Shown piece after piece: positions 6,725 through 44,286 of a DNA stretch of 64,000 nucleotides. The position numbers and the translations under genes are program-made. Within the stretch, counting starts at the first letter, position 1. Each line of letters opens with the position of its first letter. The notes beneath the pieces were generated by a model that saw nothing but the letters and a program-made list of their open reading frames with translations, ran no database searches and was not told where the DNA came from. Source of the DNA: Desulfuromonadales bacterium (GTDB lineage: Bacteria; Desulfobacterota; Desulfuromonadia; Desulfuromonadales; JACZKF01); assembly GCA_029289095.1 (NCBI GenBank), contig JARFUG010000005.1:11914-75913 (forward strand). Reading direction: 5' to 3'.

Positions 6725-6741
6725 GGAGCAGGAGCCAGAAT

Positions 6742-6806
6742 CCAGGAGCCAGGAGCCAGAATAGGGTCTTTGGCTTTCCTCCTGGCTTCTGGCTTCTGGC
6801 TCCTGG
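6742..6806. repeat. heptamer-repeat inverted pair (CCAGGAG/CCAGAAG family) forming a long hairpin
   Basis: CCAGGAGCCAGGAGCCAGAA (6742-6761) pairs with TTCTGGCTTCTGGCTCCTGG (6787-6806), 19 of 20 bp, 25-nt loop. Lies between the kinase stop (6724) and the ATPase start (6828). No T-run. Confidence 0.9.
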
Positions 6807-6827
6807 ATGCTGCCCTCAGGAACCTCA

Positions 6828-9254: not shown

Positions 9255-9256
9255 GG

Positions 9257-9467
9257 GGCAGAATCCAGGAGCCAGGAGCCAGGCGTAGGGGCGGCCCCCT
9301 GTGGCCGCCCTGGACAGGCGTAGGGGCATTGGACCTATTGGACCTCTGGGACCTCTGGGCAGGCACGGGTGCCTGCCCCTACGTTGCCTTGTCCTCCGTC
9401 TTCTGCCCTCCGTCTTCCGTCCTCAGTCCTCAGTCCTTTGTCCGTCTTCCGTCTTCCGGCTTCCTCC
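9257..9467. repeat. composite repeat spacer: CCAGGAG heptamers, CAGGCGTAGGGG direct repeat, 9-mer repeats, GC palindromes, eleven GTCYTCN heptamers
   Basis: CCAGGAG x2.7 at 9265-9283. CAGGCGTAGGGG at 9280-9291 and 9315-9326, with CCCCTACG at 9376-9383. Hairpin GGGCGGCC/GGCCGCCC at 9289-9310. ATTGGACCT/CTGGGACCT 9-mers at 9328-9363. Palindrome GGGCAGGCAC-GG-GTGCCTGCCC at 9357-9378. 7-nt periodic GTCCTCC GTCTTCT GCCCTCC GTCTTCC GTCCTCA GTCCTCA... at 9391-9467. Confidence 0.9.
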
Positions 9468-9602
9468 CTTTGTATTGATTCACGCTCCCCCTGTTCCAAC
9501 ACCTTGGATTGATTTTGGCCGATGCAACGGATTGGGGATTGATTCGATGCGGAAGCGAGATAATCTCGCAAATATGAAAGAAAATTTAGGTTTGGAGGAT
9601 CC

Positions 9603-16301: not shown

Positions 16302-16382
16302 GGAGTCGGGAGTCGGGAGTCGGGAGTCGGGGCCAAAGCAAGAGCCAAGAACCAGGACCAAAAGCCGGGAGTCGGGAGCTCG
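16302..16382. repeat. heptamer array GGAGTCG x4 plus degenerate units
   Basis: GGAGTCG at 16302, 16309, 16316 and 16323. Degenerate CCAAAGC/AAGAGCC/AAGAACC units follow. GGGAGTCGGGAGCTCG at 16367-16382 ends 2 nt before ATG 16385. Confidence 0.9.
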
Positions 16383-18624: not shown

Positions 18625-19794
18625 ATGAAGATCGAGATCGTCTCCAGTCAGGAATCGTTCGCCTCCCTGAGAGAGCCCTGGAGCGAACTGCTCGAAAAAA
18701 ATCCGGCGGTAGACTTCTTCCTCTCCCACCCCTGGCTCTACTCGTGGTGGGAAGTCTTCGCACGGGGGCGTGAGCTCTCGATCTTCGTGTGCCGCCACGG
18801 GAGCGACGGAAGGGTCGTCGGAATCCTCCCGGCCTTTATGGAAAACGGTGGAGGTCTCTCGTCGCGACGCATGCGGCTGCTGGGGAGCGAGTTCGTCAGT
18901 TCGGATTTTCTCGGCATTCTCGTCGATCCGCACAGCAAAGAAGAGACCCTGAAGGCGCTTCTCGATGCTCTCCATCACGGCGAGCAGCTCTGGGATCTGC
19001 TCGATTTCGAGGCGCTCGATTCACAGGGAGACCTGCCGGCGCTCCTGCATGAAACGGTTGCGAAAGGGGAGGGGCGCCGGATTCTCATCGAGCCCGGCGA
19101 AACGTGCCCGGCGCTGGTTCTTCCGGGCGACTGGGAGACGTACCTGCGTGCGCTGACGAAAAAGATGCGCTCCAACGTCCGGTATTTCCGCAAGGTGCTG
19201 GAGCGCCGCGGCGCCGTGGAGTACGAAATGATTGAATCGCCGGAGCAGTTCGAAGGGGCGCTGAGTGATGTGATGCGTCTTCGCCGTCGCTGGATCGAGG
19301 CGCGCGGGTACTCGAGCCCGTGCCCTTTTCCCCTCTACGCCGATTTTCACCGCCGCCTGTGGAGGCGCTCGATTCCCGAAGGGGGTGTCCACATCCGCTT
19401 CCTGCGCTACAACGGGCGTCGCATCGCTTTCGCCTATCTTCTGCGCCTGGGAGCGAGCGTTTACTACTACCAGACCGCCTTCGAGCAGGAATTCGCCAGT
19501 CGCAGCGTCGGTTCCGTCCTTCTCGGCCACCTTATCGAAGAGGCGATCGCCTGGGGGTGCACCCGCTTCGAGTTCCTGCGCGGGGATGAACAGTACAAAT
19601 TCAAATGGGGAGAGGTGCGAGAGCGCAGGCTCGCAAGGGTGAAGGTCTACAACGCCACCGGCGCCGGGCGCTGGAGCTACGGCATCGACACGGCTCTGGG
19701 GAGCGCGCGGAGGATGGTGAAGGGACTGGCGCCGGGAAGGACGGAGGACAGAGGACGGAGGACGGAGGACAGCAAACTCCCCCTCCTTGATTAG
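18625..19794 (+). CDS. FemAB-fold GNAT acyltransferase (CelD/BioF2-like, Acetyltransf_6 type)
   Basis: 389 aa. C-terminal signature FEFLRGDEQYKFKWG. Length and layout match four other paralogs in the window. The last ~19 aa (GRTEDRGRRTEDSKLPLLD) are encoded by the heptamer array. Confidence 0.7.
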   Translation: MKIEIVSSQESFASLREPWSELLEKNPAVDFFLSHPWLYSWWEVFARGRELSIFVCRHGSDGRVVGILPAFMENGGGLSSRRMRLLGSEFVSSDFLGILVDPHSKEETLKALLDALHHGEQLWDLLDFEALDSQGDLPALLHETVAKGEGRRILIEPGETCPALVLPGDWETYLRALTKKMRSNVRYFRKVLERRGAVEYEMIESPEQFEGALSDVMRLRRRWIEARGYSSPCPFPLYADFHRRLWRRSIPEGGVHIRFLRYNGRRIAFAYLLRLGASVYYYQTAFEQEFASRSVGSVLLGHLIEEAIAWGCTRFEFLRGDEQYKFKWGEVRERRLARVKVYNATGAGRWSYGIDTALGSARRMVKGLAPGRTEDRGRRTEDSKLPLLD

Positions 19795-21051: not shown

Positions 21052-22332
21052 ATGATTTACCTCGTAGCGATCTACATGTTCTTCTTCATTTTCCGTCCTT
21101 TCGAGTACTGGCCGATCCTGGGGGAATACCGCATCGAGCGGGTCTACATGCTTTTTTTGCTGAGCGCTCTGTGTTTCTGGCAGGGGAAAAAGTATTTCCC
21201 CCACACGATCAACCGGCTGGTCCTCCTCTTCTTTGCCGTCATGGCCGCCTCGACAGCGTGGGCGCTGCACGTCGACGTCGCCTATGAGGCCACCTTCGAG
21301 TTCTTCAAGCTCATGGTCTTCTTCTTCGTTCTCGTGCTGACGTTGCGGGACGAAAGGGACCTCAAGTTCTTCATCCTGGCGTACCTGGGGATCATGAGCA
21401 TCTATGTGGGGAAATCGGCGTGGGAGTTCTTCGTCCATGACCGCCACGTTTTTCGCATGGGAATCCGCAGGATGGTAGGGGTCGACACCACCTACGGCGA
21501 TCCCAACTCCTTTGCCGCCTCCATCGCCTACAGCCTGCCGTTCCTCTGGGCGATGCTGCGTCTTTACTGGCGGGACAACCCGTGGATACGCACAGCTCTC
21601 ATCGGCTACGGCGTGCTCGCTGCGGTTGCCGTCGTCTTTACCGGGTCGCGCAGCGGCATGCTCATCTGCCTTCTCTTCCTGGTGCTGGCCTGGTGGGAAT
21701 CGGCCAGGAGATTCGCGGGACTCATTGTCCTGGCGGGGGCTCTCGTCCTGGGCTGGCATTACACCCCGGAAGATCTCAAGTACCGGTTTCTCTCCACCTT
21801 CTACAAAGGGGTCGCTCCGGCGGCGGCCGCCGCCGACACCTCTGCAGAGGGGCGGCTGGACGGTCTTTTTCACGGGATACAAATTTTTTTCGAGAATCCT
21901 GTGATGGGCGTCGGTCCCGGCAACTTCCCTTATACGTGGGAGAGAGCCATGAGCTCGCACAATCTGTACGGGCAGCTTCTCGGCGAACTCGGCGCCGTCG
22001 GCTTCATCGCCTTTTTCCTGCTGGTCTGGACGATCTACCGCACGCATCGGCGCAACCGCCTGCGCATCGACGAACTGCAGGGCGGGGATTCCATGGCGGG
22101 CTACGACCCGGGCTTGCGGCTCATGCGCCTGCTCTCGGTCGCCTCGGTGCAGACCCTCATCCTCCTTCTGTTCAACGGCAACTTCGGCCACAACCTTTAC
22201 CGCTACAACTGGCTCTGGATCGGCGTCATCGCCATCGTGACGGCGCATGTGCTGGGAGGCAGAATTCAGAATCCAGGAGCCAGGAGCCGAAAGCTGTATC
22301 CAGGAGCCAGGAGCCAGAATTCCGAAACCTGA
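21052..22332 (+). CDS. O-antigen ligase/polymerase-like membrane protein (Wzy-type, exosortase-locus type)
   Basis: 426 aa, about 10 TM segments. FTGSRSGMLICLLFLVLAWW Wzy_C-like loop. HNLYGQLLGELG. C-terminal ~24 aa (IQNPGARSRKLYPGARSQNSET) encoded by heptamer arrays. Confidence 0.8.
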   Translation: MIYLVAIYMFFFIFRPFEYWPILGEYRIERVYMLFLLSALCFWQGKKYFPHTINRLVLLFFAVMAASTAWALHVDVAYEATFEFFKLMVFFFVLVLTLRDERDLKFFILAYLGIMSIYVGKSAWEFFVHDRHVFRMGIRRMVGVDTTYGDPNSFAASIAYSLPFLWAMLRLYWRDNPWIRTALIGYGVLAAVAVVFTGSRSGMLICLLFLVLAWWESARRFAGLIVLAGALVLGWHYTPEDLKYRFLSTFYKGVAPAAAAADTSAEGRLDGLFHGIQIFFENPVMGVGPGNFPYTWERAMSSHNLYGQLLGELGAVGFIAFFLLVWTIYRTHRRNRLRIDELQGGDSMAGYDPGLRLMRLLSVASVQTLILLLFNGNFGHNLYRYNWLWIGVIAIVTAHVLGGRIQNPGARSRKLYPGARSQNSET

Positions 22333-22351
22333 AACCTGAAACCTGAAACCT
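22273..22351. repeat. heptamer arrays CCAGGAG (x2, x2.5) and GAAACCT x4
   Basis: CCAGGAG at 22273, 22280, 22300 and 22307. CCAGAAT at 22314. GAAACCT at 22324, 22331, 22338 and 22345, giving TGA in all three frames (22330, 22337, 22344). Confidence 0.95.
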
Positions 22352-26992: not shown

Positions 26993-27697
26993 ATGAAACT
27001 TTCCGAACTGAGAAGAAAGGTGCTGACGATAGAGAAGGTTGTTTTCTACTCTCTCGATTTGCGGCAGTGGCAGACGCCGTCTTTGCCCCGAATGCGGCTG
27101 CCGGTCAGATTTGCCTTCGGGAGAGAAGAAGACATCGAATGCATGGCGGCCGACGACAGACTCAATCTCGGAGGGCGCAGCGATTTCTATCTGCAGAAGC
27201 TGCAGATGGGACACAAGCTGCTGCTCGGAACACGGAACGAGGAGATCCTCTTTTATCTCTGGGTCGTTTCGGGGGAGAAGATCCTGATGAACAAAGTGTT
27301 GGCGCTCGAGCCGCAGCAGATCGCCATCGAGAGGGCCTTCGTCCGCAAGGACGTGCGCGGACACGGCCTCTTCGTCCACGGTCTCAATTACCTTCTCCCA
27401 CTGGAAAAGGAGGAGGGAGCGGCGAACTGCCTGACGGAGGTGAGCTGCAAGAACAGGCCGATGACCCACACCGTGCTGAAATACGGTTTCGAGCGCCTCG
27501 ACTCCTCCTACTACTGGATCTCCCATCCGCTGCGTCATCACGCCATCGTCCTCGGTCCGCTGCGAAAGCGCAGCCGCCCCAACACCATCATCTCGCCGAT
27601 GGCAGGCGCGCAGGGGAGGTATCTATGGAAGGCAGAAGCCAGAAGCCAGAAGCCAGGAGCCAGGAGCCAGGAGCCAGGAGTAAGGAATAAGGAATAA
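26993..27697 (+). CDS. small GNAT-like N-acetyltransferase (tentative)
   Basis: Start at ATG 26993. ERAFVRKDVRGHGLFVHGLNYL resembles GNAT motif A (R-x-x-G-x-G/A). The C-terminal ~20 aa are encoded by heptamer arrays, and the stop is the third TAA of TAAGGAA x3. Confidence 0.45.
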   Translation: MKLSELRRKVLTIEKVVFYSLDLRQWQTPSLPRMRLPVRFAFGREEDIECMAADDRLNLGGRSDFYLQKLQMGHKLLLGTRNEEILFYLWVVSGEKILMNKVLALEPQQIAIERAFVRKDVRGHGLFVHGLNYLLPLEKEEGAANCLTEVSCKNRPMTHTVLKYGFERLDSSYYWISHPLRHHAIVLGPLRKRSRPNTIISPMAGAQGRYLWKAEARSQKPGARSQEPGVRNKE

Positions 27698-27876
27698 GGA
27701 CCAGGAGCCAGGAGTCAGGAGCCAGGAGCCAGAGCCGGCTCGTTCTTTTCCGTTTAACTCGCCCTCCTCCCTCCTCCCTTCTTGGCCCTTCGTCCTCTGT
27801 CCTCTGTCCTCCGTCCTCCGTCCTCCGTCCTCCGTCCTCCGTCCTCTCCAACTCCCAACTCCCAGCTCCCAACTCC
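27632..27876. repeat. largest heptamer-repeat block: ~15 sense units then ~12 antisense-type units
   Basis: 27632-27735: GCAGAAG, CCAGAAG x2, CCAGGAG x4, TAAGGAA x3, CCAGGAG x2, TCAGGAG, CCAGGAG, CCAGAGC. 27793-27876: TCCTCTG x2, TCCTCCG x5, TCCTCTC, CAACTCC x2, CAGCTCC, CAACTCC. Confidence 0.95.
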
Positions 27877-27989
27877 CGCCATATCACCACAGCCTCCGAC
27901 ACAAATGGTCAACGCCTTCGCTCGAGGGTGTGAACTTTCGTTCTCCTGGCTTTTAAGATAAGTGACTGAAATTGCGTAGAAAACAAAGT

Positions 27990-28005
27990 TGGTACATGCA
28001 TTGCT
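27990..28005 (+). promoter_or_regulatory. sigma-54 (-24/-12) promoter candidate for beta-helix lipoprotein paralog 2
   Basis: TGGTAC-ATGCA-TTGCT against the consensus TGGCAC-N5-TTGCW, with exact GG-N10-GC spacing. Lies 71 nt upstream of ATG 28076. Confidence 0.6.
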
Positions 28006-28075
28006 CCTTTGAGCTCCCGGCCGACGCATAAGCCGTCGGAACCGGGCTTTTCAAATGAACAAGGAGATCACGAGA

Positions 28076-29983
28076 ATGAAGGTCAGATTTGCTGCCTTCC
28101 CTCTGCTTGCGGCTGCCCTCATGCTGATCCTGGTCGGGTGCGGCACAGACGGAGGTAAAGCGTCGTGGGACATTTCGGGAGAGGACTTCTTTGCTCCTGC
28201 CGAGAATAACGATTTCATCAGCGAGTTCCCTCAAATCGGGAACGAACCCTCCAACCCTCGGACCGAAACGCCATCTCCCGGCGAGCCTTCTCCCACCGTC
28301 GGGGCTCACGGCGCCATCGGCGCCGCCTCTGCCGGGGTCGCCTTCTGGGACGCAGAGATCCCGCACCGCAGCCGAACGGTGATGCTGAGCGCCCCTGCGG
28401 TTCTCGATCAGCCCGATACCGAATACATCCTGGCGCAGGACATCGTCGTCGCCGGAAGCGCATTCATTATCACGGCCGCGAACGTGACGCTGAACCTCAA
28501 CGGCCGTACCGTCACCTACGCGCAGAGCGCATCTTCCGGCCCAGTCTACGGCATCAACCTCATCGAACGGGGACTGTCCGATGTGGCGATCGTGAACGGC
28601 AAGATCCGCCAGGGCAATGGCGCCTCCGAGAGCGATGCGACGCAAAGAGGGTGGCACCCGGTCAACATCCTGCGCGATGTCCCCGGTCTGAAGATCGCAG
28701 GGCTCAAGGTCGAATACCGCACCCCTGAGACCTTCGCCATCAATGTCCCCTGGGGGAGGAACGGCGAAATCGCCCATAACGATCTACACGATACGGGCTC
28801 TTTCATCATCGACCGCCATCAACTTGTCGCTGTCGTCAAGGCAAACCGGGCGCCGGGAATGACGATCCGCCACAACCGCATCCTCCGCGCGCGCCAGGCC
28901 GGGATCGACGCCGGCCCCGGGGCTGTGGTGCACGATAACGAGATCGTGATCGACAGCCACAGCACCAATTCGTACGGCATCGTCCTGTACAACGTCGACG
29001 GCTTCACCGTTCACAACAACACCATCAAGGGGGCAGGGGAGCATCCCATCGGGATCGGGATGGTTTCGGGAACAAGAAATGGCGAGGTCTACAGCAATCG
29101 CGTTGAGGTGCAGAACACTCGGGGGAGCGCCGAGTACGGAGCTACGGGCTCGGCCGGGATGCGAATGACGTGGGGGACCGACAAGGTCGAGGTCCGCAAC
29201 AACCACATCACGGTGAAGGCCCAGGCGAATCTGGTCGGTCCGGGGCTCGACAGTTGGGGACGCGGGCTCTGGCTCGGGCTCCCCGATGCTGGTGCCGCCG
29301 TTCTCTTTCGCGACAACACCATCATCGCCGTGAACAAAGACGGGCGCGCCAAGGCCGCAGGGATCGCGGTGGTGTGCGGCAACAGGGCGCCCGGCCTCGT
29401 TTTCCGCAACAACCTGGTGACGAGCAACTGGGCCAACGTGCTGCTGACAGACGATTACGGAGACGCACAAGGCTTTCCCCGCTTCATCGGGAACACCTTC
29501 CGAAAGCAGGACGATCATTCCACCTATCGCACGGTTCGCAGCCAGTATGCGGGCCGCATATCAACCGGCAACTTCTTCAGCAACGTCTATGAGAACGGCG
29601 CCGCCGCCGACAGCATGGAGATGGAATTCCACGGCTCCGGACTCAAAGAAATCGGTTTCGGCTGGAGGGTGCGCCTGACGGTGCGCGATGCCGCGAACCA
29701 CCCCGTGAGCGGAGCGACGGTGCGGATCGCAGACAACAGCGGAGACGTGGTTTTCAGCGGGAGCACCGATGCCGATGGTCATGCGTTCACCGAACTGGTC
29801 GAGTTCCAGGCGACCAACCGCAGCAGCTACGTCGTCGCAGGCCAGCTCACCAAAGATGTCTTCGGCCTCTACGGCAACCGCATCCGCAAGAATCCCTACA
29901 CAGTCACCGTCGAAAAGAACGGCGTCAGGGTCTCGGAAGTGATCGAGATCAAGGCAGACAGAGAGGTGGAGATAGGACTTTAG
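28076..29983 (+). CDS. beta-helix (PbH1/CASH-like) lipoprotein, paralog 2
   Basis: ATG 28076 has an AAGGAGA RBS at 28061. Lipoprotein signal MKVRFAAFPLLAAALMLILVGC. Beta-helix rungs and a C-terminal beta-sandwich. Long identical blocks with paralog 3 (GEHPIGIGMVS, GSAEYGATGSAGMRMTWGTD, ANLVGPGLDSWGRGLW, DGRAKAAGIAVVCGN). Confidence 0.75.
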   Translation: MKVRFAAFPLLAAALMLILVGCGTDGGKASWDISGEDFFAPAENNDFISEFPQIGNEPSNPRTETPSPGEPSPTVGAHGAIGAASAGVAFWDAEIPHRSRTVMLSAPAVLDQPDTEYILAQDIVVAGSAFIITAANVTLNLNGRTVTYAQSASSGPVYGINLIERGLSDVAIVNGKIRQGNGASESDATQRGWHPVNILRDVPGLKIAGLKVEYRTPETFAINVPWGRNGEIAHNDLHDTGSFIIDRHQLVAVVKANRAPGMTIRHNRILRARQAGIDAGPGAVVHDNEIVIDSHSTNSYGIVLYNVDGFTVHNNTIKGAGEHPIGIGMVSGTRNGEVYSNRVEVQNTRGSAEYGATGSAGMRMTWGTDKVEVRNNHITVKAQANLVGPGLDSWGRGLWLGLPDAGAAVLFRDNTIIAVNKDGRAKAAGIAVVCGNRAPGLVFRNNLVTSNWANVLLTDDYGDAQGFPRFIGNTFRKQDDHSTYRTVRSQYAGRISTGNFFSNVYENGAAADSMEMEFHGSGLKEIGFGWRVRLTVRDAANHPVSGATVRIADNSGDVVFSGSTDADGHAFTELVEFQATNRSSYVVAGQLTKDVFGLYGNRIRKNPYTVTVEKNGVRVSEVIEIKADREVEIGL

Positions 29984-29987
29984 AATC

Positions 29988-30095
29988 GTGAGGAGTGAGG
30001 AGTCAGGAGTCAGGAGTCAATAGATTGAGTGCAATGCAATCGGCGGGACCCTTCGGGTTCCGCCTTTTTTTTATCCCAGCTCCCAACTCCCAACC
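29988..30095. repeat. heptamer arrays flanking a terminator: GTGAGGA/GTCAGGA x5 and CAGCTCC/CAACTCC x2.7
   Basis: Units at 29988-30022 (sense GGAGTGA/GGAGTCA family). The complement family is at 30077-30095. The two blocks bracket the hairpin at 30042-30072. Confidence 0.9.
30042..30072 (+). terminator. Rho-independent terminator after paralog 2
   Basis: GGCGGGACC (30042-30050) pairs with GGTTCCGCC (30056-30064), including one G-U pair. Loop CTTCG, followed by T8 (30065-30072). Confidence 0.8.
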
Positions 30096-30120
30096 TTCGG
30101 CTGAGGATGATTTTCACATG

Positions 30121-30140
30121 TTGTTGCATCTGCGCAACAA
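30121..30140. promoter_or_regulatory. inverted repeat TTGTTGC-N6-GCAACAA, candidate enhancer-binding-protein site
   Basis: Perfect 7-bp arms at 30121-30127 and 30134-30140, about 80-100 nt upstream of the sigma-54 -24 element at 30220. An IHF-consensus match AATCAACATCTTA (WATCAANNNNTTR) lies at 30199-30211 between them. Confidence 0.3.
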
Positions 30141-30219
30141 ACCGCCGCGCTGAGCCGCAGAGAACGAAAGTCCCAGGAAATCCTCAAAATGGTCTGAAAA
30201 TCAACATCTTACATCCTTT

Positions 30220-30235
30220 CGGCACGGCCATTGCT
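30220..30235 (+). promoter_or_regulatory. sigma-54 (-24/-12) promoter candidate for beta-helix lipoprotein paralog 3
   Basis: CGGCAC-GGCCA-TTGCT with exact GG-N10-GC spacing. Lies 81 nt upstream of TTG 30316. Confidence 0.6.
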
Positions 30236-30315
30236 GTATGGGCCTGCGTTGCACACGCGTGAGGAACCTGGGTTCCGATTGAATCCTCACCCTAAAAAGC
30301 CGATAGGAGATACCC

Positions 30316-32169
30316 TTGAGCAGACGTTTTCTTGTACTTTTTTCCCTCATTCCCTTCCTCCTTCTTGCCTGTGGCGGCGGCGAATCTGATGCTCAGGCTT
30401 TTGATCATGATCTCCCCTCCGCGAACGGCGGAGGCGGCGATTTTGTCTCAGATGAATTTCCCGGCGTCAGTCCGGGCTCTGTCGGCGCCCCTTCAGCGGG
30501 AATCGGCGCGGACGGCAAGGTCGGAGCCGATTCCTGGGATCGTCAGACACCCGCCCGCACCAACCGGGTGATGATCAGCGCACCGGGGGAGCTGACCCAG
30601 GCCGATACGGTCTATATCCTGGCTCAGGATATCTTCGCTCCCGGCACCGCCTTCACCGTCAAGGCCGCCAACGTCACCCTGGATCTCAACGGTCGCACCA
30701 TCACGTATGCCAACGGCGGCGCTTCGGAGCGGGCCTACGGGGTAAGCGTCGATCGCGGCCTGCGTGATGTGGCCATCGTCAACGGAAGCATCCGACAAGG
30801 GGGAGGAGCGCAGGAGAACAATCCCGACCAAGCGGGGTGGCATCCGGTTCATTTCGTCTCCGACACTCCGGGCTTCAAGGTTGCCGGCCTGAACATCGAG
30901 TACCGTACGCCCGAGACGTCGGCCATTCATGCCCAGTGGGGGAAGCAGGGTGAGATTCACCACAACGATCTCAACGATACCGGCTCCTTCATCATCAATC
31001 GTCACCAACTCGTCTCGGTCATCAAGAACAACCGCGGCTCCGGCACCCGGATTCACCACAATCGCATCGTCAGGGCGCGCCAGGGGGGGATCGACATCGG
31101 CAACGCTTCCGAGACAAGCCACAACGAGATCGTCGTCGAGAGCCGGAGCACCAACTCCTACGGCATCTCGTCTTACGGGATCGACGGTTTTACGATCAGC
31201 AACAATATGATCAAAGGGAGCGGCGAGCATCCCATCGGCATAGGCATGGTCTCCAAGTCGCGAAACGGCAAGGTCCACGGCAACCGCATCGAGGTTCAGA
31301 ATACCGAGGGGAGCGCAGAGTACGGCGCCACCGGCTCGGCCGGTATGCGCATGACGTGGGGGACCGACCAGGTCGAGGTCTGGAACAACCACGTCACCGT
31401 CAGGGCACAGGCCAATCTCGTCGGTCCCGGCCTCGACAGTTGGGGGCGCGGGCTGTGGGTCGGACTTCCCGATCCGCAGGCGAAGGTCCTTTTCCGCAAC
31501 AACACCATCATCGCAAAAAACAACGACGGTCGCGCCAAAGCGGCAGGGATCGCGGTGGTGTGCGGCAACGAGTCGCCGGGGCTCGTCTTTCGCGACAACC
31601 TGGTGGTGAGCAACTGGGGGCACGTCGTTCTGGCCGATGATTACGGCAAGGGGGACGGTTATCCCCAGTTCTTCGGAAACACCTTCCGCAAAGAAGACGA
31701 TCACGAAAATTACCGCACGGTAAAAAGCGATTACCGCGGCTACGTCGCCACCGGCGTCTTTATCGGCAACCGCTATGAAGGAGGATCCTCCCGCGATTCG
31801 ATCGAGGGAGAGTTCGAGTCCAGAGAGCTCAAGGATATCGCTTTCGGATGGGAATACGGCCTCACCGTGAAATCGGGCGGACGGACACTTCCCGGCGCTT
31901 CGGTGAAGATCTATGATAATACCGGCGCCGAGATCTTCAGCGGCATGACCGACGAATCCGGGCGCATCGACGCCGTTCTCATCGAGTACTGGGCGACCAA
32001 CAACAGCGACAATCCCGGACCGCCCGAGGCGCTCCGCCGGGATGTCTTCGGCGCCTACGGCAACCGCATCGACAAGAACCCCTACCGCGTCCGCATCAGT
32101 TCCGCTGGTGTGACGAAGGAGCAGCCGGTCACGGCGACCGGGAACATCAACGCCGAGGTCGAGCTGTAA
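30316..32169 (+). CDS. beta-helix (PbH1/CASH-like) lipoprotein, paralog 3
   Basis: TTG start with an AGGAGA RBS at 30305-30310. Lipoprotein signal ...FSLIPFLLLAC. Collinear with paralog 2 over nearly its full length. Confidence 0.75.
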   Translation: MSRRFLVLFSLIPFLLLACGGGESDAQAFDHDLPSANGGGGDFVSDEFPGVSPGSVGAPSAGIGADGKVGADSWDRQTPARTNRVMISAPGELTQADTVYILAQDIFAPGTAFTVKAANVTLDLNGRTITYANGGASERAYGVSVDRGLRDVAIVNGSIRQGGGAQENNPDQAGWHPVHFVSDTPGFKVAGLNIEYRTPETSAIHAQWGKQGEIHHNDLNDTGSFIINRHQLVSVIKNNRGSGTRIHHNRIVRARQGGIDIGNASETSHNEIVVESRSTNSYGISSYGIDGFTISNNMIKGSGEHPIGIGMVSKSRNGKVHGNRIEVQNTEGSAEYGATGSAGMRMTWGTDQVEVWNNHVTVRAQANLVGPGLDSWGRGLWVGLPDPQAKVLFRNNTIIAKNNDGRAKAAGIAVVCGNESPGLVFRDNLVVSNWGHVVLADDYGKGDGYPQFFGNTFRKEDDHENYRTVKSDYRGYVATGVFIGNRYEGGSSRDSIEGEFESRELKDIAFGWEYGLTVKSGGRTLPGASVKIYDNTGAEIFSGMTDESGRIDAVLIEYWATNNSDNPGPPEALRRDVFGAYGNRIDKNPYRVRISSAGVTKEQPVTATGNINAEVEL

Positions 32170-32194
32170 ACCGGAACGACATCGCTGCACAGAC

Positions 32195-32236
32195 GAAAAA
32201 AAGGTGGGATCCCTCGGGCTCCCACCTTTTTTTCGT
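32195..32236. terminator. Rho-independent, potentially bidirectional terminator after paralog 3
   Basis: An A7 run, then GGTGGGATCCC (32203-32213) pairing with GGGCTCCCACC (32216-32226) with one mismatch, then T7 (32227-32233). Confidence 0.75.
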
Positions 32237-32334
32237 CTGGGGCCGGGTGGGTGGGAGGCTTCATTAAATGTAGGAAAACTTTACAATGAAGCCTTCTCGC
32301 CTAATTTCTGTTGTATTTTCAGATAGATACGATC

Positions 32335-33406: not shown

Positions 33407-36055
33407 ATGAAACTGCTCAAAGTATTGACCTTTGTGATGCTCGTGATCTGTCTGCTTCCCGGGTGCCGCACCCAGACCCGCGAGGCGTTGCTCGAGAAGG
33501 GGGTCGCGCTCGCTCAGGCCGGCGATTTCGATGGTGCGATCGTGTGCTTTCGAAGCGCCCTGGACAGGGATGCCAACTTCTCCGAAGCCCGGTACGAGCT
33601 GGCTCACGCCTATCTGCGGACAGGCCGGTTCGATCGGGCGGAAAACGAACTCGAGAAAGTTCTTCGCCAGGACGCCTCTTTTCCCAGGCTCCCCCTGCTG
33701 CTCGCCGAGGTCTACCTTCACAGCTCCCGCGTCGGGCAGGCGCGCGAAATAATCGAGGAATGGCTCATCGCTCACGGTCACGATGCCGATGCCTATGATC
33801 TTCTCGGGCGCGTGCATATCGCAGCGAACGATTTCATGGCGGCGGAGGAGGCGTTAAGAAAAGCGGTGCGTTTCCAGCCCGAGCACATTTCGGCCCGTAT
33901 CAATCTGGCCGCCCTGCACCTTACCCAGGGGCGCGTCGAAGCGGGGCGGACGATCCTGGAGGAGATCCTCACGGAGGCTCCCGACAACATTCCCGCGCGA
34001 AACATGCTGGCAGGCCTGGAGATCGAAGCCGGAAGGGCGGAGTCGGCTCTGGAGCAGTTCGAGGCGCTGGCGCGAGTCGATCAAAGCAGTCCCGACGCCC
34101 TTTACATGAGCGCTCTGCTGCATCTGCAGATGGGAAACATCGAGGAGGTGAAAAAAATCTCGGCAGTTCTCGATGAGCGTTTTCGCGACCATTCCCTTCC
34201 CCCCCTGCTGAGGGGGCTGATCCTCTATCGCGAGGGGAAATTTACCGAGGCGAGCATCGCTTTTCAGGCGGCCAACCGTATCCGTTCCGATTTGACGGCA
34301 TTCTATTTTCTCGGTCTGAGCTATTACCACCTCGGAAATTTCGAACTCGCCCTCAGCGAAATGCAGCGCATTCTCGATTATCGCCCCTCTTCGGTGCAGC
34401 CCCGCCTCATGAGCGCCGTCATCCTGCTGCAGCAGCAAAGGAGCGGCGACGCCATCCGGGAGGCTGAAATCGCCCTGCGCCACGATCCCCAAAGCGGCGT
34501 CGCGCACAACATTCTCGGCAGCGCCTATCTGGCCCAGGGAAAATACGATCTGGGGATGACGCACCTCGCCCGCGCCACGGCGCTCGATCCAAATCTCGCC
34601 GATGCACATCTTAAAAAAGGGATCTTCAACCTGACGAGAGGGAATTCGGAGTCGGGTGAGAGGGAAATCGTGCAGGCGCTTGCGATCGCACCCGAGGTCC
34701 TCGATACGCGGCTGATCCTGGCGAATCATCACCTGCGCCGGCAGAACTACCCCGCGGCCCTCGGCATACTGGAAGAAGGGCTCCGCGGCCGCCCGCAGGA
34801 TGCCGTCCTGTACAACGTCATGGCCGGCGCCTATTTCTCGATGAACCGGCCCCAAAAAGCACTCGAAGCTCTTCATGCCGCGAGGCGGGCCGACCCCGGA
34901 TACCTGACCCCGGTGTTCAACCTGGCTGCTTACTACGCCGCCGCGGGGGAAGCCGAAACGGCGGCCGCGGAATACCGGAAGATTCTGCAGAAAGACCCGG
35001 CGAACGTGCGCGCTCTTGTCGCCGCCGGAAGGCTTGCAGAGGCGATGGGGAAGGGCAACCAAGCGCTCGGCCATTTCCAGAGAGCCAGAGAGACCGGCGC
35101 CCCCGAGGGCTTCCTCGCCCTGGCGCAATACCAGCTCAGAAGCGGAAACGAAACAGAGGCGGCCTCTCTTCTGGACGAGGGTCTGCGCAGACATCGAAAC
35201 GCTCCGGCGCTTCTCGATGCCAAAGGACGGCTTCTGCTGCGGCAGGGGCGCGCGGAAGAGGCGATCCCCGTCTTCCAGGCCCTGGAGGCGGCAAGTCCCG
35301 GACGCGGTTATCCGGTGTTGGTGCAGATCTATCTGCAGGGCGAGCAGAGGGAAAAGGCCGAAGAGACAGCCCGCAGGGCGACTCGTGAAAACCCCGACCG
35401 CGCGTACGGGTATGGTCTGCAGGCCGCCATCCACGAGGCTGTGGGAGAACATCGGCAGGCGCTGCGGATCCTCGAAGAGGCGCGACGAAGGGTCAGAGAG
35501 CCTCAGCTCGAGATGCAGATCGGACAGCTTCACGAAAGGGCGGGCAATCATCAGAGGGCAAAGGAGAGCTACGTCCGTGTTCTGGAGAGCGCTCCCCGGT
35601 TTCATCCGGCTCTTTTCGCTCTCGCATCCCTCCAGGACCGGGCCGGCAACAAGGCAGAGGCGATGCGCCTCTACCGCCAGGTCCTGGAAATCGAGAGCGA
35701 CTTTACCCCTGCCCTCAACAACCTCGCCTATCTCCAGGCCGAAAATTTCGGCGATCCGGAAGAGGGGCTGAGACTGGCTTTTCAGGCCTATCGAAACGAA
35801 CCGGAACAGCCCGTCGTCATGGATACCCTCGGATATCTTCTGGTGCGCAACGGAAGGGCGACGGAGGCCGTCCCCCTGCTCGAGCAGGCTGCCGCCCTGC
35901 TCCCTGACACGCCCACAGTCCTGTACCACCTCGGGCTCGCCTACAAGGAGAGCGGCCAGAAGGAGAAGGCGCGAGGGGCGCTGCACCGCGCCCTCGAAAT
36001 GGGGGAGTTTCCCGAGTCCCGGCAATCGAGGAAGATTCTGGCGCAGTTGGAATAG
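33407..36055 (+). CDS. TPR-repeat lipoprotein, PEP-CTERM system type (PrsT-like)
   Basis: ATG 33407 with an AGGGAGAAG RBS. Lipoprotein signal MKLLKVLTFVMLVICLLPGC. About 880 aa of consecutive TPR units (A-x3-Y/L-x-G-x3-A periodicity throughout). Confidence 0.85.
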   Translation: MKLLKVLTFVMLVICLLPGCRTQTREALLEKGVALAQAGDFDGAIVCFRSALDRDANFSEARYELAHAYLRTGRFDRAENELEKVLRQDASFPRLPLLLAEVYLHSSRVGQAREIIEEWLIAHGHDADAYDLLGRVHIAANDFMAAEEALRKAVRFQPEHISARINLAALHLTQGRVEAGRTILEEILTEAPDNIPARNMLAGLEIEAGRAESALEQFEALARVDQSSPDALYMSALLHLQMGNIEEVKKISAVLDERFRDHSLPPLLRGLILYREGKFTEASIAFQAANRIRSDLTAFYFLGLSYYHLGNFELALSEMQRILDYRPSSVQPRLMSAVILLQQQRSGDAIREAEIALRHDPQSGVAHNILGSAYLAQGKYDLGMTHLARATALDPNLADAHLKKGIFNLTRGNSESGEREIVQALAIAPEVLDTRLILANHHLRRQNYPAALGILEEGLRGRPQDAVLYNVMAGAYFSMNRPQKALEALHAARRADPGYLTPVFNLAAYYAAAGEAETAAAEYRKILQKDPANVRALVAAGRLAEAMGKGNQALGHFQRARETGAPEGFLALAQYQLRSGNETEAASLLDEGLRRHRNAPALLDAKGRLLLRQGRAEEAIPVFQALEAASPGRGYPVLVQIYLQGEQREKAEETARRATRENPDRAYGYGLQAAIHEAVGEHRQALRILEEARRRVREPQLEMQIGQLHERAGNHQRAKESYVRVLESAPRFHPALFALASLQDRAGNKAEAMRLYRQVLEIESDFTPALNNLAYLQAENFGDPEEGLRLAFQAYRNEPEQPVVMDTLGYLLVRNGRATEAVPLLEQAAALLPDTPTVLYHLGLAYKESGQKEKARGALHRALEMGEFPESRQSRKILAQLE

Positions 36056-36060
36056 GAGGG

Positions 36061-36166
36061 CAGAATCCAGAATCCAGAAACCAGGAGCCAGAAAAGAACC
36101 CTGCACCCTGAATTTTGAACCTATGGGCAAGTCTTTCTCCTGGCTCCTGGATTCTGGCTCCTGGCT
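36061..36166. repeat. heptamer inverted pair (CAGAATC/CAGGAGC family and complement)
   Basis: CAGAATC x2, CAGAAAC, CAGGAGC, CAGAAAA at 36061-36095. The complement block TTCTCCTGGCTCCTGGATTCTGGCTCCTGGCT is at 36135-36166. CCAGGAGCCAG (36081-36091) pairs with CTGGCTCCTGG (36140-36150). Confidence 0.9.
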
Positions 36167-36186
36167 ACTGTTTTAGGAGATATTCA

Positions 36187-37215: not shown

Positions 37216-37221
37216 GAGGCA

Positions 37222-37319
37222 GGAGTTGGGAGTTGGGAGTGAGGAGGCAGAAGGCGGAAGACAGAGGACAGAAGACAGAAGACAAGCCAGGAGCTATGAG
37301 CCAGGAACTATGAGCAATG
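37222..37319. repeat. heptamer array (GGAGTTG, GGAGTGA, GAAGACA, GAGGACA families) merging into a 14-mer AGCCAGGARCTATG duplication at the start codon
   Basis: Fourteen consecutive 7-nt units from 37222. AGCCAGGAGCTATG (37285-37298) and AGCCAGGAACTATG (37299-37312). The second ATG (37310) is the aminotransferase-like gene start. Confidence 0.9.
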
Positions 37320-38545
37320 AGCACAAAAGACGCTTCCGCATAGGACGCACTCTCCCGCCTGCGGCGGCTCCGATTGAGCTTCGCGACATCGTGTGCGGCC
37401 TTCGAGGGTGGTTTCGGGGGGAGAGGGCCGTGCGGGAGATGGAAGAGAGTTTCCGCTCGTTTTTCGGCGTGCGGCACTGCTTTGCCGTTTCCTCGGGCAC
37501 GGCGGCGCTCACCCTCATCCTCGCCGCGCTCAAGGAGAAGCGTCCGCGACGGACCGAGGTCCTCATTCCGGCCTACACTTGTTATTCGGTCCCCTCGGCC
37601 ATCGTGCGGGCCGGATTGAAGGTGGCCCTGTGCGACATCGATCCGAAGACTCTCGATTTCGACTACGGCGAGCTAAAGAGAAAACTCGAGAACCCGCGTC
37701 TGCTGGCCGTCGTGCCGACGCACCTGTTTGGCCTGCCGGCCGATGTGCCCCGACTTCGGGAGATGTTGCGCGACCGCGAAACGACCATCATCGAGGATGC
37801 GGCGCAGGCTATGGGGGGGCAGTTTGGAGGGAGAAAGCTCGGCACCCTGGGAGACGTCGGCTTCTTCAGCCTTGGTCGAGGAAAAGCGCTTTCCACCGTC
37901 GAAGGGGGGATCATTCTCACCAACTGTGACGAGATTGCCGCGAAAATCGCAAGAGAGCAGCGCCGCCTCTACGAGTATGGCGCTCTGGAGATGGGCTCTC
38001 TTGTGCTGTATGCCCTCGTGCTGACGGTTTTCCTGCGCCCCTCCCTCTTCTGGCTGCCGAGTTCCCTGCCTTTTCTGAACCTGGGGAAGACCGTCTTCGA
38101 TCCGACGTTCAGGATGCGAAGGATGAGCGGTTTTCAGGCAGGCCTGGCTCTGCACTGGCGGGAAAAGCTTGAAGCTCTGCAGGCTGCGCGCAGGGGGAGC
38201 GTCCGGCAGTGGTTCGGAGCCCTTATGCCGGCTCAGGCGGCACTCCTGAACGACCCGCCTCCTCTGCTTCGGCTGCCGGGGAGGGCGAAAACGGCGCACG
38301 GTGCATCGAGGCTGCTGTCGGGGGGGGCGAAAAAGGGGCTCGGAGTGTCGGCGGCCTATCCCGACGCCGTCAGCGCCATTCCAGAACTCGCCGGAGACTT
38401 CGCCGGTGAAGATTTTCCGGCAGCCAGGGACCTGGCTCGGCGGATCGTGACCCTGCCGGTCCATACCTACGTCAACAGTGAAGACCGCAGAAAAATTCTC
38501 GGTCTCTTGTCTCAAGTGGAGATGCAATGGCCGCTGTCAGCCTGA
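37310..38545 (+). CDS. DegT/DnrJ/EryC1/StrS-family PLP-dependent enzyme (sugar aminotransferase-like)
   Basis: FAVSSGTAALTLILAAL, VLIPAYTCYSV, IIEDAAQAMGG, FFSLGRGKALS (candidate PLP Lys), and C-terminal VTLPVHTYV. Confidence 0.75.
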   Translation: MSNEHKRRFRIGRTLPPAAAPIELRDIVCGLRGWFRGERAVREMEESFRSFFGVRHCFAVSSGTAALTLILAALKEKRPRRTEVLIPAYTCYSVPSAIVRAGLKVALCDIDPKTLDFDYGELKRKLENPRLLAVVPTHLFGLPADVPRLREMLRDRETTIIEDAAQAMGGQFGGRKLGTLGDVGFFSLGRGKALSTVEGGIILTNCDEIAAKIAREQRRLYEYGALEMGSLVLYALVLTVFLRPSLFWLPSSLPFLNLGKTVFDPTFRMRRMSGFQAGLALHWREKLEALQAARRGSVRQWFGALMPAQAALLNDPPPLLRLPGRAKTAHGASRLLSGGAKKGLGVSAAYPDAVSAIPELAGDFAGEDFPAARDLARRIVTLPVHTYVNSEDRRKILGLLSQVEMQWPLSA

Positions 38546-42361: not shown

Positions 42362-42388
42362 TTGACTCGTTGTGAATCGAGGTCGACG

Positions 42389-43600
42389 ATGAATCAAGCA
42401 GAAGTCCAGATCCTTAACGTTCCAGACGTGCAGATTGTCGAGAGCGACCGGAAACTCATGACGATCAGGGTGGTTGTCGGATTGGATGGGATGGACGAAA
42501 TCAGAAACGAATGGATGAACCTGACGAAGCTGCAGGGCAATCGCGGGATTCATCAGGCCTTTGGATGGGTCCGGGCCGCCTACGAGACGCTTTCGAGAGG
42601 CGATAAGCCGTATATCGTCGTTCTGAGGACCGACCGTGGGAAAATCGTTGCCATAGCTCCATTGGCGCTTGGATACGGAAAATACAGGGGAATCACGATC
42701 CGGAAGCTGGGGTTCGTCAGGAACGACCAGAGCCCGTGCAACGACTTCATTCTCCATCCCGGGTTCGAAAAAGATGCGATGTTCGTTCTGCTGGAGCACC
42801 TGAACACATTCATGGATTGGGAGATGGTCGACCTGCACCAGGTGGACATCGACGGCCACACGGGGAAGGCCATCAAGAGCCTCATGGAAAGATTCCCTTA
42901 CTGCTCGTACGAGAAAAAGAACAGACAGAGCCCCTATCTCGTCTTCGAGAAAGGCTGGAACGAATTCTGGGGTGGAAAATCGAGGAGACTCAAAAAGTCG
43001 ATCAACAACAAGCTGAACCGGCTGGGGATGGACTACCAGGTCGAGAAGCGAAGGATTTCCGACGCCACGGCGCAGGAATTGGCAGAAATCGTCCGGATTT
43101 CGCAAAAGAGCTGGAAGCGGCGCATCGGCGCAGAACTCGCGGTCTGCAGCGACAACTGGAAATTCTACACGGAGATCTGCAACCATTTCGGCCCCGAGGG
43201 GTGTATCCATGTCTGGATCCTGAGAATCGAAGGGATTCCCGTCGCCTTCGAGTTCCATGTCGAGTACGGAGGAGTCCAGTATCCGATAAAAGCCGACTAT
43301 GACGACGACTTCAAAAAGCTCTCTCCCGGCTCCATTCTCGAATACGAAATCATCAGGAGATCTTTTAACGATCCAGGGTTGTCAGCCTACCATTCATGCG
43401 CACATAGCTATGATTATCTTCTCAAATGGACCCAAACAATCAGGGATCATCGGAACTATGAATTTTTTGCGCCAAAGATCAAGACGATAATATTGTATAA
43501 ATTCGAATACGAATTGATGAAGCTTGTGCGAAAAAGTCGATTGTACAGGTGGTACAAGGAAAGACAGTGCAGGGAGGGATTGCAAGGGGAAGCGCTATGA
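42389..43600 (+). CDS. FemAB-fold GNAT acyltransferase (CelD/BioF2-like)
   Basis: ATG 42389 (GAGG RBS), or TTG 42362. ISQKSWKRRIG and IKADYDDDFKKLSPGSILEYEII motifs. The 3' third is visibly AT-richer than the rest of the locus. Confidence 0.7.
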   Translation: MNQAEVQILNVPDVQIVESDRKLMTIRVVVGLDGMDEIRNEWMNLTKLQGNRGIHQAFGWVRAAYETLSRGDKPYIVVLRTDRGKIVAIAPLALGYGKYRGITIRKLGFVRNDQSPCNDFILHPGFEKDAMFVLLEHLNTFMDWEMVDLHQVDIDGHTGKAIKSLMERFPYCSYEKKNRQSPYLVFEKGWNEFWGGKSRRLKKSINNKLNRLGMDYQVEKRRISDATAQELAEIVRISQKSWKRRIGAELAVCSDNWKFYTEICNHFGPEGCIHVWILRIEGIPVAFEFHVEYGGVQYPIKADYDDDFKKLSPGSILEYEIIRRSFNDPGLSAYHSCAHSYDYLLKWTQTIRDHRNYEFFAPKIKTIILYKFEYELMKLVRKSRLYRWYKERQCREGLQGEAL

Positions 43601-44286
43601 AAGCCGAAATGGGTATTTTGGCTAAAACAATGGGTGAATACAGTAAAAAAGGTTTGAAAGGAGTTCTACATAAAGTTCTATTAAAGACACGGAAGTATGT
43701 TTTTTACACGACTAAATCGACATGGTACCAATTCGATATGGCCGACAGCTTGACAAGAATAGACAATATGTTTGGATTGGATTGCGAATTTCTTGTCTCT
43801 GACAAATCCACTTTAATAGAATGGCTCAAAGTCAATCATAGTATTTACCCGTGGATCTATTTTGAAAAAGAAATTGAATCGGCAATAAGAAATGACCATG
43901 TTTTTGCTGTTGTCAGTCATAAGAAATCATTTGTAGGGTATATAAAAGTTGGAATCGGTTCAACTTATATTCACGATTTTGATGTAAACATTGTTTTTCC
44001 GCCTCGAACAGCATTCGTTTACGACACATTTGTTCTGCCCGAGTGGCGCGGGAAGAATGTGGCTGTTTATGCTCTCCTCACCCTGGCCGATTACCTGAAG
44101 CACAGGGGATTCGAGAGAATTCTCTGCCACATCGAAGACTGGAATCAGTCTTCTGTGCGTACATTCAGTAAAGCGTACTTCTATCCCAGAAATACGGTCA
44201 GGTTCATTCGAATTGCAGAGATGGGATTCTATGTCCTGGACAGGCGCCGCCTCTACAGAAAACTCGAACCTTATGTCGCTGGATGA
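43597..44286 (+). CDS. GNAT-family N-acetyltransferase (tentative), in an AT-rich patch
   Basis: ATGA overlap at 43597-43600. YDTFVLPEWRGKNVAVYALLTLADYLKHRGFERILCHIEDWNQSSVRTFSKAYF fits GNAT motifs A and B. The 5' two-thirds of the gene has a markedly AT-rich composition. Confidence 0.55.
   Translation: MKAEMGILAKTMGEYSKKGLKGVLHKVLLKTRKYVFYTTKSTWYQFDMADSLTRIDNMFGLDCEFLVSDKSTLIEWLKVNHSIYPWIYFEKEIESAIRNDHVFAVVSHKKSFVGYIKVGIGSTYIHDFDVNIVFPPRTAFVYDTFVLPEWRGKNVAVYALLTLADYLKHRGFERILCHIEDWNQSSVRTFSKAYFYPRNTVRFIRIAEMGFYVLDRRRLYRKLEPYVAG

Follow-up and report, generated by a model that had tools for sequence, protein, structure and literature searches.

Why does the largest tandem heptamer array of a polysaccharide locus stand between the end of one gene and the control region of the next, and does it serve a purpose there? 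The question concerns positions 27632-27876 of a 64,000-nt stretch from a Desulfuromonadales bacterium (contig JARFUG010000005.1 of assembly GCA_029289095.1, forward-strand positions 11,914 to 75,913), hereafter the window, which is an XrtA/PEP-CTERM exopolysaccharide locus with nearly all genes on the + strand. The block lies between the last gene of a wzx / beta-helix-1 unit and a sigma-54-type promoter preceding the gene of a second beta-helix protein, beta-helix-2 (Table 1). The initial annotation had described it as a sense array followed by its complement, and had suggested an insulator, a terminator surrogate or a mimic of the anti-Shine-Dalgarno (anti-SD) sequence. The block is a compound, length-polymorphic microsatellite, one of many in the locus and part of a widespread class. 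With moderate confidence we read it as slippage-generated heptanucleotide microsatellites tolerated in unconstrained DNA; there is little support for an insulator of a special kind, for a terminator surrogate or for an anti-SD element.

A compound heptamer microsatellite

The 245 nt of the block, as read from the sequence, are a compound of two adjoining period-7 arrays, one of purine-rich heptamers (P block) and one of pyrimidine-rich heptamers (Y block), and the units and coordinates first given for them, 15 plus 12 units, proved exact to the base. The P block opens with GCAGAAG (27632), two CCAGAAG and four CCAGGAG units (27653-27680), passes into a run of TAAGGAA and closes with two CCAGGAG, one TCAGGAG and two further CCAGGAG units, its last base being 27735. 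In the Y block, two TCCTCTG and five TCCTCCG units are followed by TCCTCTC, two CAACTCC, CAGCTCC and CAACTCC. Tandem Repeats Finder (TRF) called period-7 arrays at 27633-27736 (15.1 copies, score 110) and 27765-27846 (11.7 copies, score 101), and a third array of 4.3 copies at 27848-27877. The 57-nt spacer annotated between the blocks is correct as an interval and is itself partly of CCTCC type with period 7 from 27765.

Self-identity at the other periods from 3 to 10 was only 0.15-0.43 in the P and Y blocks, and in the whole window period 7, together with its multiple 14, was the sole period from 3 to 15 above threshold. The best 42-nt period-7 score was 0.98, compared with at most 0.60 in 100 Markov simulations. 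Runs of identical variant units inside the block, namely (CCAGAAG)2-3, (CCAGGAG)4, (TAAGGAA)3 and (TCCTCCG)5, bear the mark of local slippage. The heptamers are contiguous and have no spacers of the kind found in clustered regularly interspaced short palindromic repeats, and Rfam gave no meaningful match for the whole window at gathering score or for the block region at E <= 10.

The purine-rich and pyrimidine-rich arrays of the block are unrelated to each other. Their consensus units depart from perfect complementarity at three of the seven positions, so that the second array is not the complement of the first as had been assumed, and the GGAG/CUCC core alone pairs; no pairing of P with Y in cis was found among the 25 longest inverted repeats listed. 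The relation of TCCTCCG to GGACGGA-type units, also noted in the initial annotation, was borne out at a distance: positions 27804-27838 of the Y block are 97% complementary to the AGGACGG array at 19738-19772, 8 kb upstream. Similarly, the P block is 89-91% complementary to an array 8.4 kb downstream, and the CAACTCC units are complementary to GGAGTTG at 37218-37246.

Direct evidence for a change of length came from a second assembly. A contig of the metagenome-assembled genome (MAG) GCA_030604755.1 is near-identical to the window over 4213-30007 (25.8 kb), with six single-nucleotide polymorphisms and one indel. That sole indel falls in the P block and comprises three whole units, two of CCAGGAG and one of TAAGGAA, 21 nt in all; the remaining arrays covered by the contig are identical. 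The contig itself stops within an array at 30007. Logan contigs of run SRR14872665, which come from short reads of the same strain and match the window at 100% identity, likewise have an end within an array at 6727, 16331, 27818 and 36163. Since short-read contigs break at the arrays, related arrays are presumably scattered over the genome; the arrays account for assembly breaks at these points and are usable as strain markers. A protein-seeded scan of JGI metagenomes yielded no strain variants, and exact-product look-ups for three window proteins returned nothing on record.

In a more distant relative, GCA_050485365.1 (L003; 70% amino-acid identity), the site of the block holds a vestige of about 50 nt with a period-7 identity of 0.50, compared with about 0.3 at other periods. 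It is followed by a C-rich, non-periodic tract of 49 nt (26 C, 8 G) and then by the conserved CCTCCGACACGAATGGTCA and the promoter TGGTATATCGATTGCT; from the stop codon to CCTCCGACACGAATGGTCA the distance is only about 45 nt. The Wzy_C gene of L003 is followed by a CAGGAGC/CAGAAGC array and two GAAACCT units, orthologous to 22273-22351 of the window. Another relative, L008 (68% identity), has no arrays. Judged from these alignments, the arrays are old enough for two species to share them, and yet they expand, contract and decay quickly.

The block was placed between two transcription units, and it does separate the genes, but it is not wholly intergenic, since the upstream open reading frame (ORF) enters it by 66 nt. 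The conserved part of the upstream protein stops near 27625 (...SPMAGAQGRYLW), homologues aligning up to SPMAGAQ(G/S)RYLW, and the first 66 nt of the P block are read as a C-terminal tail of 22 residues, KAEARSQKPGARSQEPGVRNKE, that the alignment does not find conserved among homologues. Each of the three frames meets a TAA, at 27681, 27688 or 27695, and the ORF ends at the third of these; a stop is therefore retained however many units are gained or lost 5' of the TAA-containing run. A second ORF that invades an array, Wzy_C (21052..22332), stops within four TGA-containing GAAACCT units (22324-22351) that cover all frames, so that changes of unit number upstream of this run cannot remove its stop either. 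In annotation, the block is best entered as a hypervariable repeat, and the final 22 or so codons of the upstream gene as a repeat-encoded tail outside the conserved protein. As for the GNAT label of this gene, only a faint basis was found: matches in two homologues, at E about 0.01-0.03. The window protein matched nothing in Pfam or NCBIfam and belongs to a small family without family-level annotation.

The block thus fills exactly the DNA between a conserved coding end and a conserved sigma-54 control region. Under the reading that we favour, replication slippage of 7-nt units would generate the arrays and keep them homogeneous, and they would persist at 27632-27876 because length changes there would be harmless, the conserved protein and the spacing from the putative activator site to the promoter being both unaffected. 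Effects on expression, for instance where the 3' untranslated region is lengthened or the RNA carries a C-rich tract, would then be a by-product, and the block would hold no dedicated terminator, insulator or anti-SD mechanism.

This reading agrees with what is known of the long simple sequence repeats (LSSRs) of non-pathogenic bacteria. Heptanucleotide repeats were found to be the most abundant long class in many bacterial genomes, and polymerase slippage has been proposed for them (Mrazek, Guo and Shah 2007, as summarised in PMC4679880 and PMC4692102). According to these summaries the LSSRs resemble the window arrays in being tandem 7-nt repeats, mostly intergenic, many per genome and phylogenetically scattered, in varying in length among close relatives, in favouring period 7 and in their proposed slippage origin. 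The window presents the same features: tandem 7-nt units beyond chance, a change of copy number and many mainly intergenic arrays. Unlike in the survey, as reported in PMC4679880, where they are not listed as the most repeat-rich groups, Acidobacteriota, Planctomycetota, Verrucomicrobiota and Nitrospirota are represented here. A text search for the unit strings (NCAGRAG, TCCTCCG/GGACGGA, GGAGTYG) matched only unrelated human sequences, and the assembly accessions had no match in the literature searched. The block is a further case of a known, poorly understood kind of heptamer repeat, whose cross-phylum architecture merits a survey.

The purine-then-pyrimidine order across phyla

Searches with three units in tandem showed how widely the family is spread. 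(CCAGRAG)3 was present in at least 114 stretches of DNA from species-representative genomes, and (TCCTCCG)3 in at least 120 metagenomic contigs. Among the (CCAGRAG)3 matches listed were Acidobacteriota, Planctomycetota, Verrucomicrobiota, Nitrospirota, Nitrospinota and Desulfobacterota, as well as Gemmatimonadota, Chloroflexota, Cyanobacteria and some Proteobacteria, and these matches include complete genomes and long-read assemblies. The class-wide counts below were drawn from 234 fetched loci of other organisms, from the matches listed, with gene positions taken from a rough codon-usage gene caller.

Among periods of at least 5 nt, period 7 prevailed in these loci, with 292 and 331 arrays compared with 22 and 30 for period 8, and many loci carried several arrays with different units. 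CCAGAAG was the commonest unit of the family in the other genomes. About 84% of 276 arrays, from the fetched loci and the window together, lay outside called genes; arrays overlapping gene 3' ends numbered 12 of purine type and 0 of pyrimidine type, and arrays were commoner between convergent than between divergent genes.

A strong regularity concerned the order of paired arrays. The genome set held 39 groups with a purine-rich array followed by a pyrimidine-rich one (P-then-Y; five from the window) and seven in the reverse order. In the TCCTCCG metagenome set a purine array, usually the true complement GGACGGA or GGACAGA, preceded in about 23 cases and followed in about two. In 28 of the 39 P-then-Y pairs the arms are complementary within one mismatch per unit; the block at 27632-27876 belongs to the mismatched minority, and one other contig (L217) shows its combination of CCAGAAG-type and TCCTCCG arrays. 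The preference for the purine arm first thus amounts to about 6:1 to 10:1, with mostly complementary arms, and goes beyond simple slippage; in the published surveys, as far as covered by the accounts cited here, the regularity is mentioned only in passing. In three Acidobacteriaceae loci (L032, L075 and L090) the pyrimidine block comes first and the spacers are very short, which suggests a lineage-specific preference. A strand bias of unpaired arrays relative to genes was considered and dropped: with the crude gene caller, 32 purine-on-sense arrays compared with 15 in the CCAGRAG set were not replicated in the TCCTCCG set (7 compared with 9).

Related repeats have been described elsewhere. Across related species, Xanthomonas GGGAATC arrays occupy the same gene gaps but vary extensively in length and are at times inverted pairs, and like the arrays here the Xanthomonas GGGAATC and Nostoc GGGGAYT repeats (2-26 units) are intergenic heptamers with some inverted pairs capable of forming stem-loops (Rehm et al. 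2015, PMC4692102). They also share with the window a fit to the G-quadruplex motif, seen here in the sub-blocks at 16308-16332 (+) and 27854-27877 (-); unlike them, most units here have no G3 run, and two unit families per gap are not described in PMC4692102. TAACTGA arrays are common to distant phyla (Beggiatoaceae, Cyanobacteria, Bacteroidetes) without known mechanism or function, and RNA-binding partners (S1, Csp, CsrA) have been proposed for them, though not shown (MacGregor 2015, PMC4679880). These repeats and the cyanobacterial short tandemly repeated repetitive heptamers are, as here, intergenic and of one family across distant phyla (PMC4679880), but TAACTGA arrays are direct, of 2-6 copies and just upstream of starts, whereas those of the present class are longer, abut stops and are commonly inverted pairs. 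The window arrays begin 0-11 nt past the upstream stop codon or overlap it. To our knowledge, a strong purine-then-pyrimidine pairing is absent from the published description of LSSRs.

Several observations weigh against slippage and tolerance as the full account. Slippage alone leaves unexplained the P-then-Y order, and also the matched arms of 28 of the 39 pairs; the regularity is the most interesting loose end of this analysis. The length polymorphism is a single event between two short-read assemblies. Arrays are present at orthologous positions in a second species, L003, and are therefore long-lived. The orthologous tract of L003 is still C-rich without a period-7 signal, which would fit a conserved Rho-entry function, and nowhere in the 64 kb is the excess of C over G greater than in the Y block. 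Finally, smaller pairs of the window fold better than shuffled sequences on both strands, the + strand reaching z = -6.1 for 6718-6812 and z = -3.9 for both 29985-30100, which encloses a canonical terminator, and 36055-36175. With three hairpins significantly better than shuffles, some members of the class probably act as hairpins.

These points could be drawn together in a bolder proposal, namely that P-then-Y arrays are undescribed, widespread intercistronic or 3'-end elements of Acidobacteriota, Planctomycetota, Verrucomicrobiota, Nitrospirota and others, which serve as slippage-tuned hairpins or Rho entry sites. Matched-arm hairpins would then lie inside operons, and mismatched G-rich-then-C-rich compounds such as 27632-27876 at unit boundaries before independently regulated genes, here a sigma-54 gene. 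We regard this proposal as doubtful. If the regularity does reflect function (3'-end formation, Rho entry or mRNA stability), it would offer a cheap and mutable setting of relative operon expression.

Termination and other candidate roles

The main functional rival to tolerated microsatellites is a role at the operon end through Rho loading on the Y block, in effect the terminator surrogate first proposed but by another mechanism; it is possible, if doubtful, on the evidence of the sequence. The Y block would act as a Rho utilization (rut) site that ends read-through from the wzx / beta-helix-1 unit before the sigma-54 region. Rut sites require C-rich, G-poor and unstructured RNA. After the stop at 27697 come about 115 nt of untranslated C-rich, G-poor RNA composed of (UCCUCCG)n and (CAACUCC)n, where roughly 70 nt or more are expected of such a site, and the 78 nt from 27814 hold 43 C and 6 G, the top C>G value of the whole + strand, the runner-up being the other large Y block, at 9393. 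The initial annotation had found no canonical terminator in the array, and rightly so: no more than a weak hairpin is present, its stem of 5 bp (27726-27741) followed by a mixed T-rich tail, although the organism uses canonical intrinsic terminators at other unit ends, at 30042-30073 and 32190-32239. The poor pairing of P with Y may leave the tract single-stranded, and the orthologous L003 tract is C-rich and G-poor even without heptamer periodicity. In common with known rut sites, the block offers about 80-115 nt of untranslated C-rich, G-poor RNA right after the last stop of a unit without an intrinsic terminator; rut sites are, however, defined functionally and require no repeats, and the likeness here, as the whole case for Rho, is one of composition. 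Furthermore, 4-bp helices of GGAG with CUCC recur along the tract in the predicted minimum free energy structure of the + strand, a Y block of the same type also follows the canonical terminator (30074-30094), where Rho would be superfluous, and these unit families turn up in many unrelated settings.

The second possibility is a hairpin comparable to repetitive extragenic palindromic (REP) sequences and bacterial interspersed mosaic elements (BIMEs), in which a P:Y stem at the 3' end of the upstream mRNA would set the relative expression of the neighbours by protection from 3' exonucleases, as an RNase III site or by stalling the terminating ribosome. For E. coli, REP sequences are reported to stabilise the upstream mRNA, attenuate transcription through Rho, or stall ribosomes when about 15 nt or less from the stop. 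The REP/BIME elements of enterobacteria and pseudomonads, including the hairpin-forming REP doublets (REPINs), resemble the present class as dispersed hairpin-forming elements at 3' ends or between cistrons, tolerated where harmless. A hairpin would accord with the class-wide P-then-Y bias and its mostly matched arms, with the three window pairs at z = -3.9 to -6.1, with the closeness of arrays to stop codons, with the purine type of all overlaps at gene 3' ends and with the excess in convergent gaps. The block at 27632-27876 itself fits poorly. Its arms match at only four of the seven positions, and + strand RNA of 27600-27900 folds no better than its dinucleotide shuffles (-97.9 compared with -97.65 ± 4.8 kcal/mol, z = -0.05), much as was seen for the second large compound array, 9255-9480 (z = -0.5). 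Ribosomes, moreover, would unwind the two-thirds of the P block that belong to the ORF. The units are non-palindromic 7-nt direct repeats without a GTAG-headed palindrome of 20-40 nt, the two blocks here lack mutual complementarity, the class is not known to be linked to the REP-associated tyrosine transposase, and slippage would alter the number of the tandem heptamers that make up its arms. For the block we therefore consider such a hairpin unlikely, and a hairpin-type terminator, whether as such or as the surrogate first proposed, is not indicated, in view of the fold relative to shuffles and the non-complementarity of the units, and was rejected. A terminator-like motif was present in 6 of the 39 P-then-Y spacers, compared with about 7% of control segments, which also speaks against hairpin function; a general flanking of canonical terminators by arrays holds true at 30042-30073 and is weakly supported elsewhere.

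An element acting at the level of DNA, either an i-motif or G-quadruplex that impedes polymerases or a hot spot of recombination or phase variation that rearranges the locus, seems quite improbable. A regular-expression search for (G3N1-7)x4 motifs found two on the - strand, the template strand, at 27762-27788 and 27854-27877; three of the eight motifs in 64 kb lie inside heptamer arrays, and G-rich heptamers of Xanthomonas and Nostoc have been studied as putative G-quadruplex-forming repeats (PMC4692102). On the other hand, four or more G3+ runs spaced by 1-7 nt occur in the block at these two - strand spots only, and most units (CCAGGAG, CCAGAAG, TCCTCCG) have no G3 run. Complementarity of 86-97% over 29-38 nt links arrays 8-9 kb apart, and the array-flanked beta-helix-2 gene is absent from L003; its boundaries there, however, are not at arrays, and the sigma-54 promoter is retained. 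Since length changes alter no reading frame and no promoter spacing, classical phase variation is unlikely.

Titration is very improbable. Here the GGA/AGGAG block would bind CsrA-like proteins or 30S subunits and the CCUCC block would pair with Shine-Dalgarno (SD) sequences in cis or in trans. The CAGGAGC units are similar to the CAGGAUG repeats of CsrB, the anti-SD core CCUCC is part of TCCTCCG, and the last unit of some unpaired arrays is the SD of the next gene (16380, 37300). Yet Rfam gave no match to CsrB, RsmY, RsmZ or any other family even at E <= 10, no sigma-70-like promoter was found on either strand of 27000-30400, the GGA motifs are not displayed in hairpin loops, and the commonest unit elsewhere, CCAGAAG, has no GGA. 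The promoter of the downstream gene lies 113 nt past the array, which places the array outside the 5' untranslated region of that gene, and the closest relative lost the array yet kept the surrounding genes, beta-helix-2 excepted. The mimicry of SD or anti-SD sequences first suggested is a matter of base composition.

An antisense RNA can be all but set aside: the - strand of 27600-27900 does fold better than its shuffles, by way of G-U pairs and with a 33-bp stem in a long hairpin (-145.3 compared with -128 kcal/mol, z = -3.0), and weak Rfam matches to long microRNA-precursor hairpins fall on that strand, but these are far below gathering scores, the region has no promoter-like site on either strand, the neighbouring genes are all on the + strand, and G-U pairing of purine-rich with pyrimidine-rich repeats is expected from composition.

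What had been proposed as an insulator is the largest member of a hypervariable array family found in many gaps of the locus and in many other phyla.

Setting of the block in the locus

Heptamer arrays fill nine intergenic gaps between 6.7 and 37.3 kb (Table 1), and the purine-rich block comes first in all five gaps with two blocks; the tightly packed genes of the second half of the window have no arrays between them.

Table 1. Coordinates of the block, its flanking features and the other array sites in the window
Feature	Positions	Strand	Properties and source
Upstream gene, last of the wzx / beta-helix-1 unit	26993..27697	+	Gene call on identical MAG contig
P block (purine-rich heptamers)	27632..27735	+	15 units, NCAGRAG/TAAGGAA type; period-7 self-identity 0.85
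TAAGGAA sub-block	27681..27700	+	TAAGGAA x2 and 6-nt TAAGGA; sequence read
Weak hairpin GAGCC-AGAGCC-GGCTC, then mixed T-rich GTTCTTTTCCGTTT	27726..27755	+	-12.4 kcal/mol, z = -0.9
Transition CCCTCCTCCCTCCTCCC...	27762..27792	+	Pyrimidine-rich, already of period 7; TRF array starts at 27765
Y block (pyrimidine-rich heptamers)	27793..27876	+	12 units, TCCTCYG/CARCTCC type; period-7 self-identity 0.86
First conserved non-coding block CCTCCGACACAAATGGTCA	27893..27911	+	18/19 positions identical in L003
Sigma-54-type -24/-12 promoter TGGTACATGCATTGCT	27990..28005	+	Pattern search; conserved in L003 as TGGTATATCGATTGCT
Beta-helix-2, secreted right-handed beta-helix protein	28076..29983	+	Pfam Beta_helix 1.2e-13; exact product on two public contigs
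Array sites	6724-6806; 9265-9473; 16302-16380; 19738-19770; 22273-22351	Locus + strand	TRF, sequence read
Array sites, continued	27632-27877; 29991-30094; 36061-36170; 37221-37322	Locus + strand	TRF, sequence read

The sigma-54-type promoter named in the initial annotation is real as a motif. A search for TGGCAC-N5-TTGCW spacing with GG at -24 and GC at -12 gave two matches in 64 kb. Each is intergenic and stands ahead of a secreted-protein gene, and the one before beta-helix-2 is conserved in L003. The block at 27893-27911 (CCTCCGACACRAATGGTCA; 10733-10751 in L003), about 80-95 nt upstream of the -24 element, is a candidate upstream activating sequence or enhancer-binding-protein site. In L008 a sigma-54 activator gene adjoins the homologous gene. 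The second promoter, CGGCACGGCCATTGCT at 30220-30235, precedes a 617-aa protein of unknown family (30316..32169) and is conserved in L003 as GGGCACGGGCGTTGCT; as with the first promoter, a CAACTCC-type array lies upstream, here by about 125 nt. Between the first promoter and the SD of beta-helix-2, a leader stem-loop followed by CUUUUC (28016-28046; -21.6 kcal/mol, z = -1.6), which is absent as a conserved feature in L003, is a possible attenuator.

L003 keeps, at 10830-10925, the sigma-54 promoter and the downstream segment AACCTTCGGCTGAGGA..., with the whole of beta-helix-2 missing, and the difference is a gain or loss of the gene between the two promoters. A deletion through the CAACTCC arrays at 27848-27877 and 30075-30094 was considered and rejected, as L003 retains the promoter lying between them.

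Among the other gaps, the one at 9284-9383 contains three copies of CGTAGGGGC (two +, one -; about 0.4 copies expected by chance), which head GC-rich palindromes between CCAGGAG and GTCCTCC/GTCTTCC arrays and look like REP/REPIN-type sequences. A GGGAGTY sub-block on the + strand at 16308-16332 fits the G-quadruplex motif. The terminator at 32190-32239 is a near-perfect palindrome with 24-nt arms, an A-tract and a T-tract, and so would be bidirectional. At 37285-37322 a 14-nt repeat, AGCCAGGA(G/A)CTATG, carries an SD-like AGGAG and an ATG in each copy and stands at the start of a DegT-family aminotransferase gene, giving several alternative in-phase start contexts. Finally, the G+C content dips to 0.43 at 43001-44000, compared with about 0.59 for the window, around the ORFs 42362..43600 and 43549..44286, which may represent a recently acquired gene inside the polysaccharide cluster.

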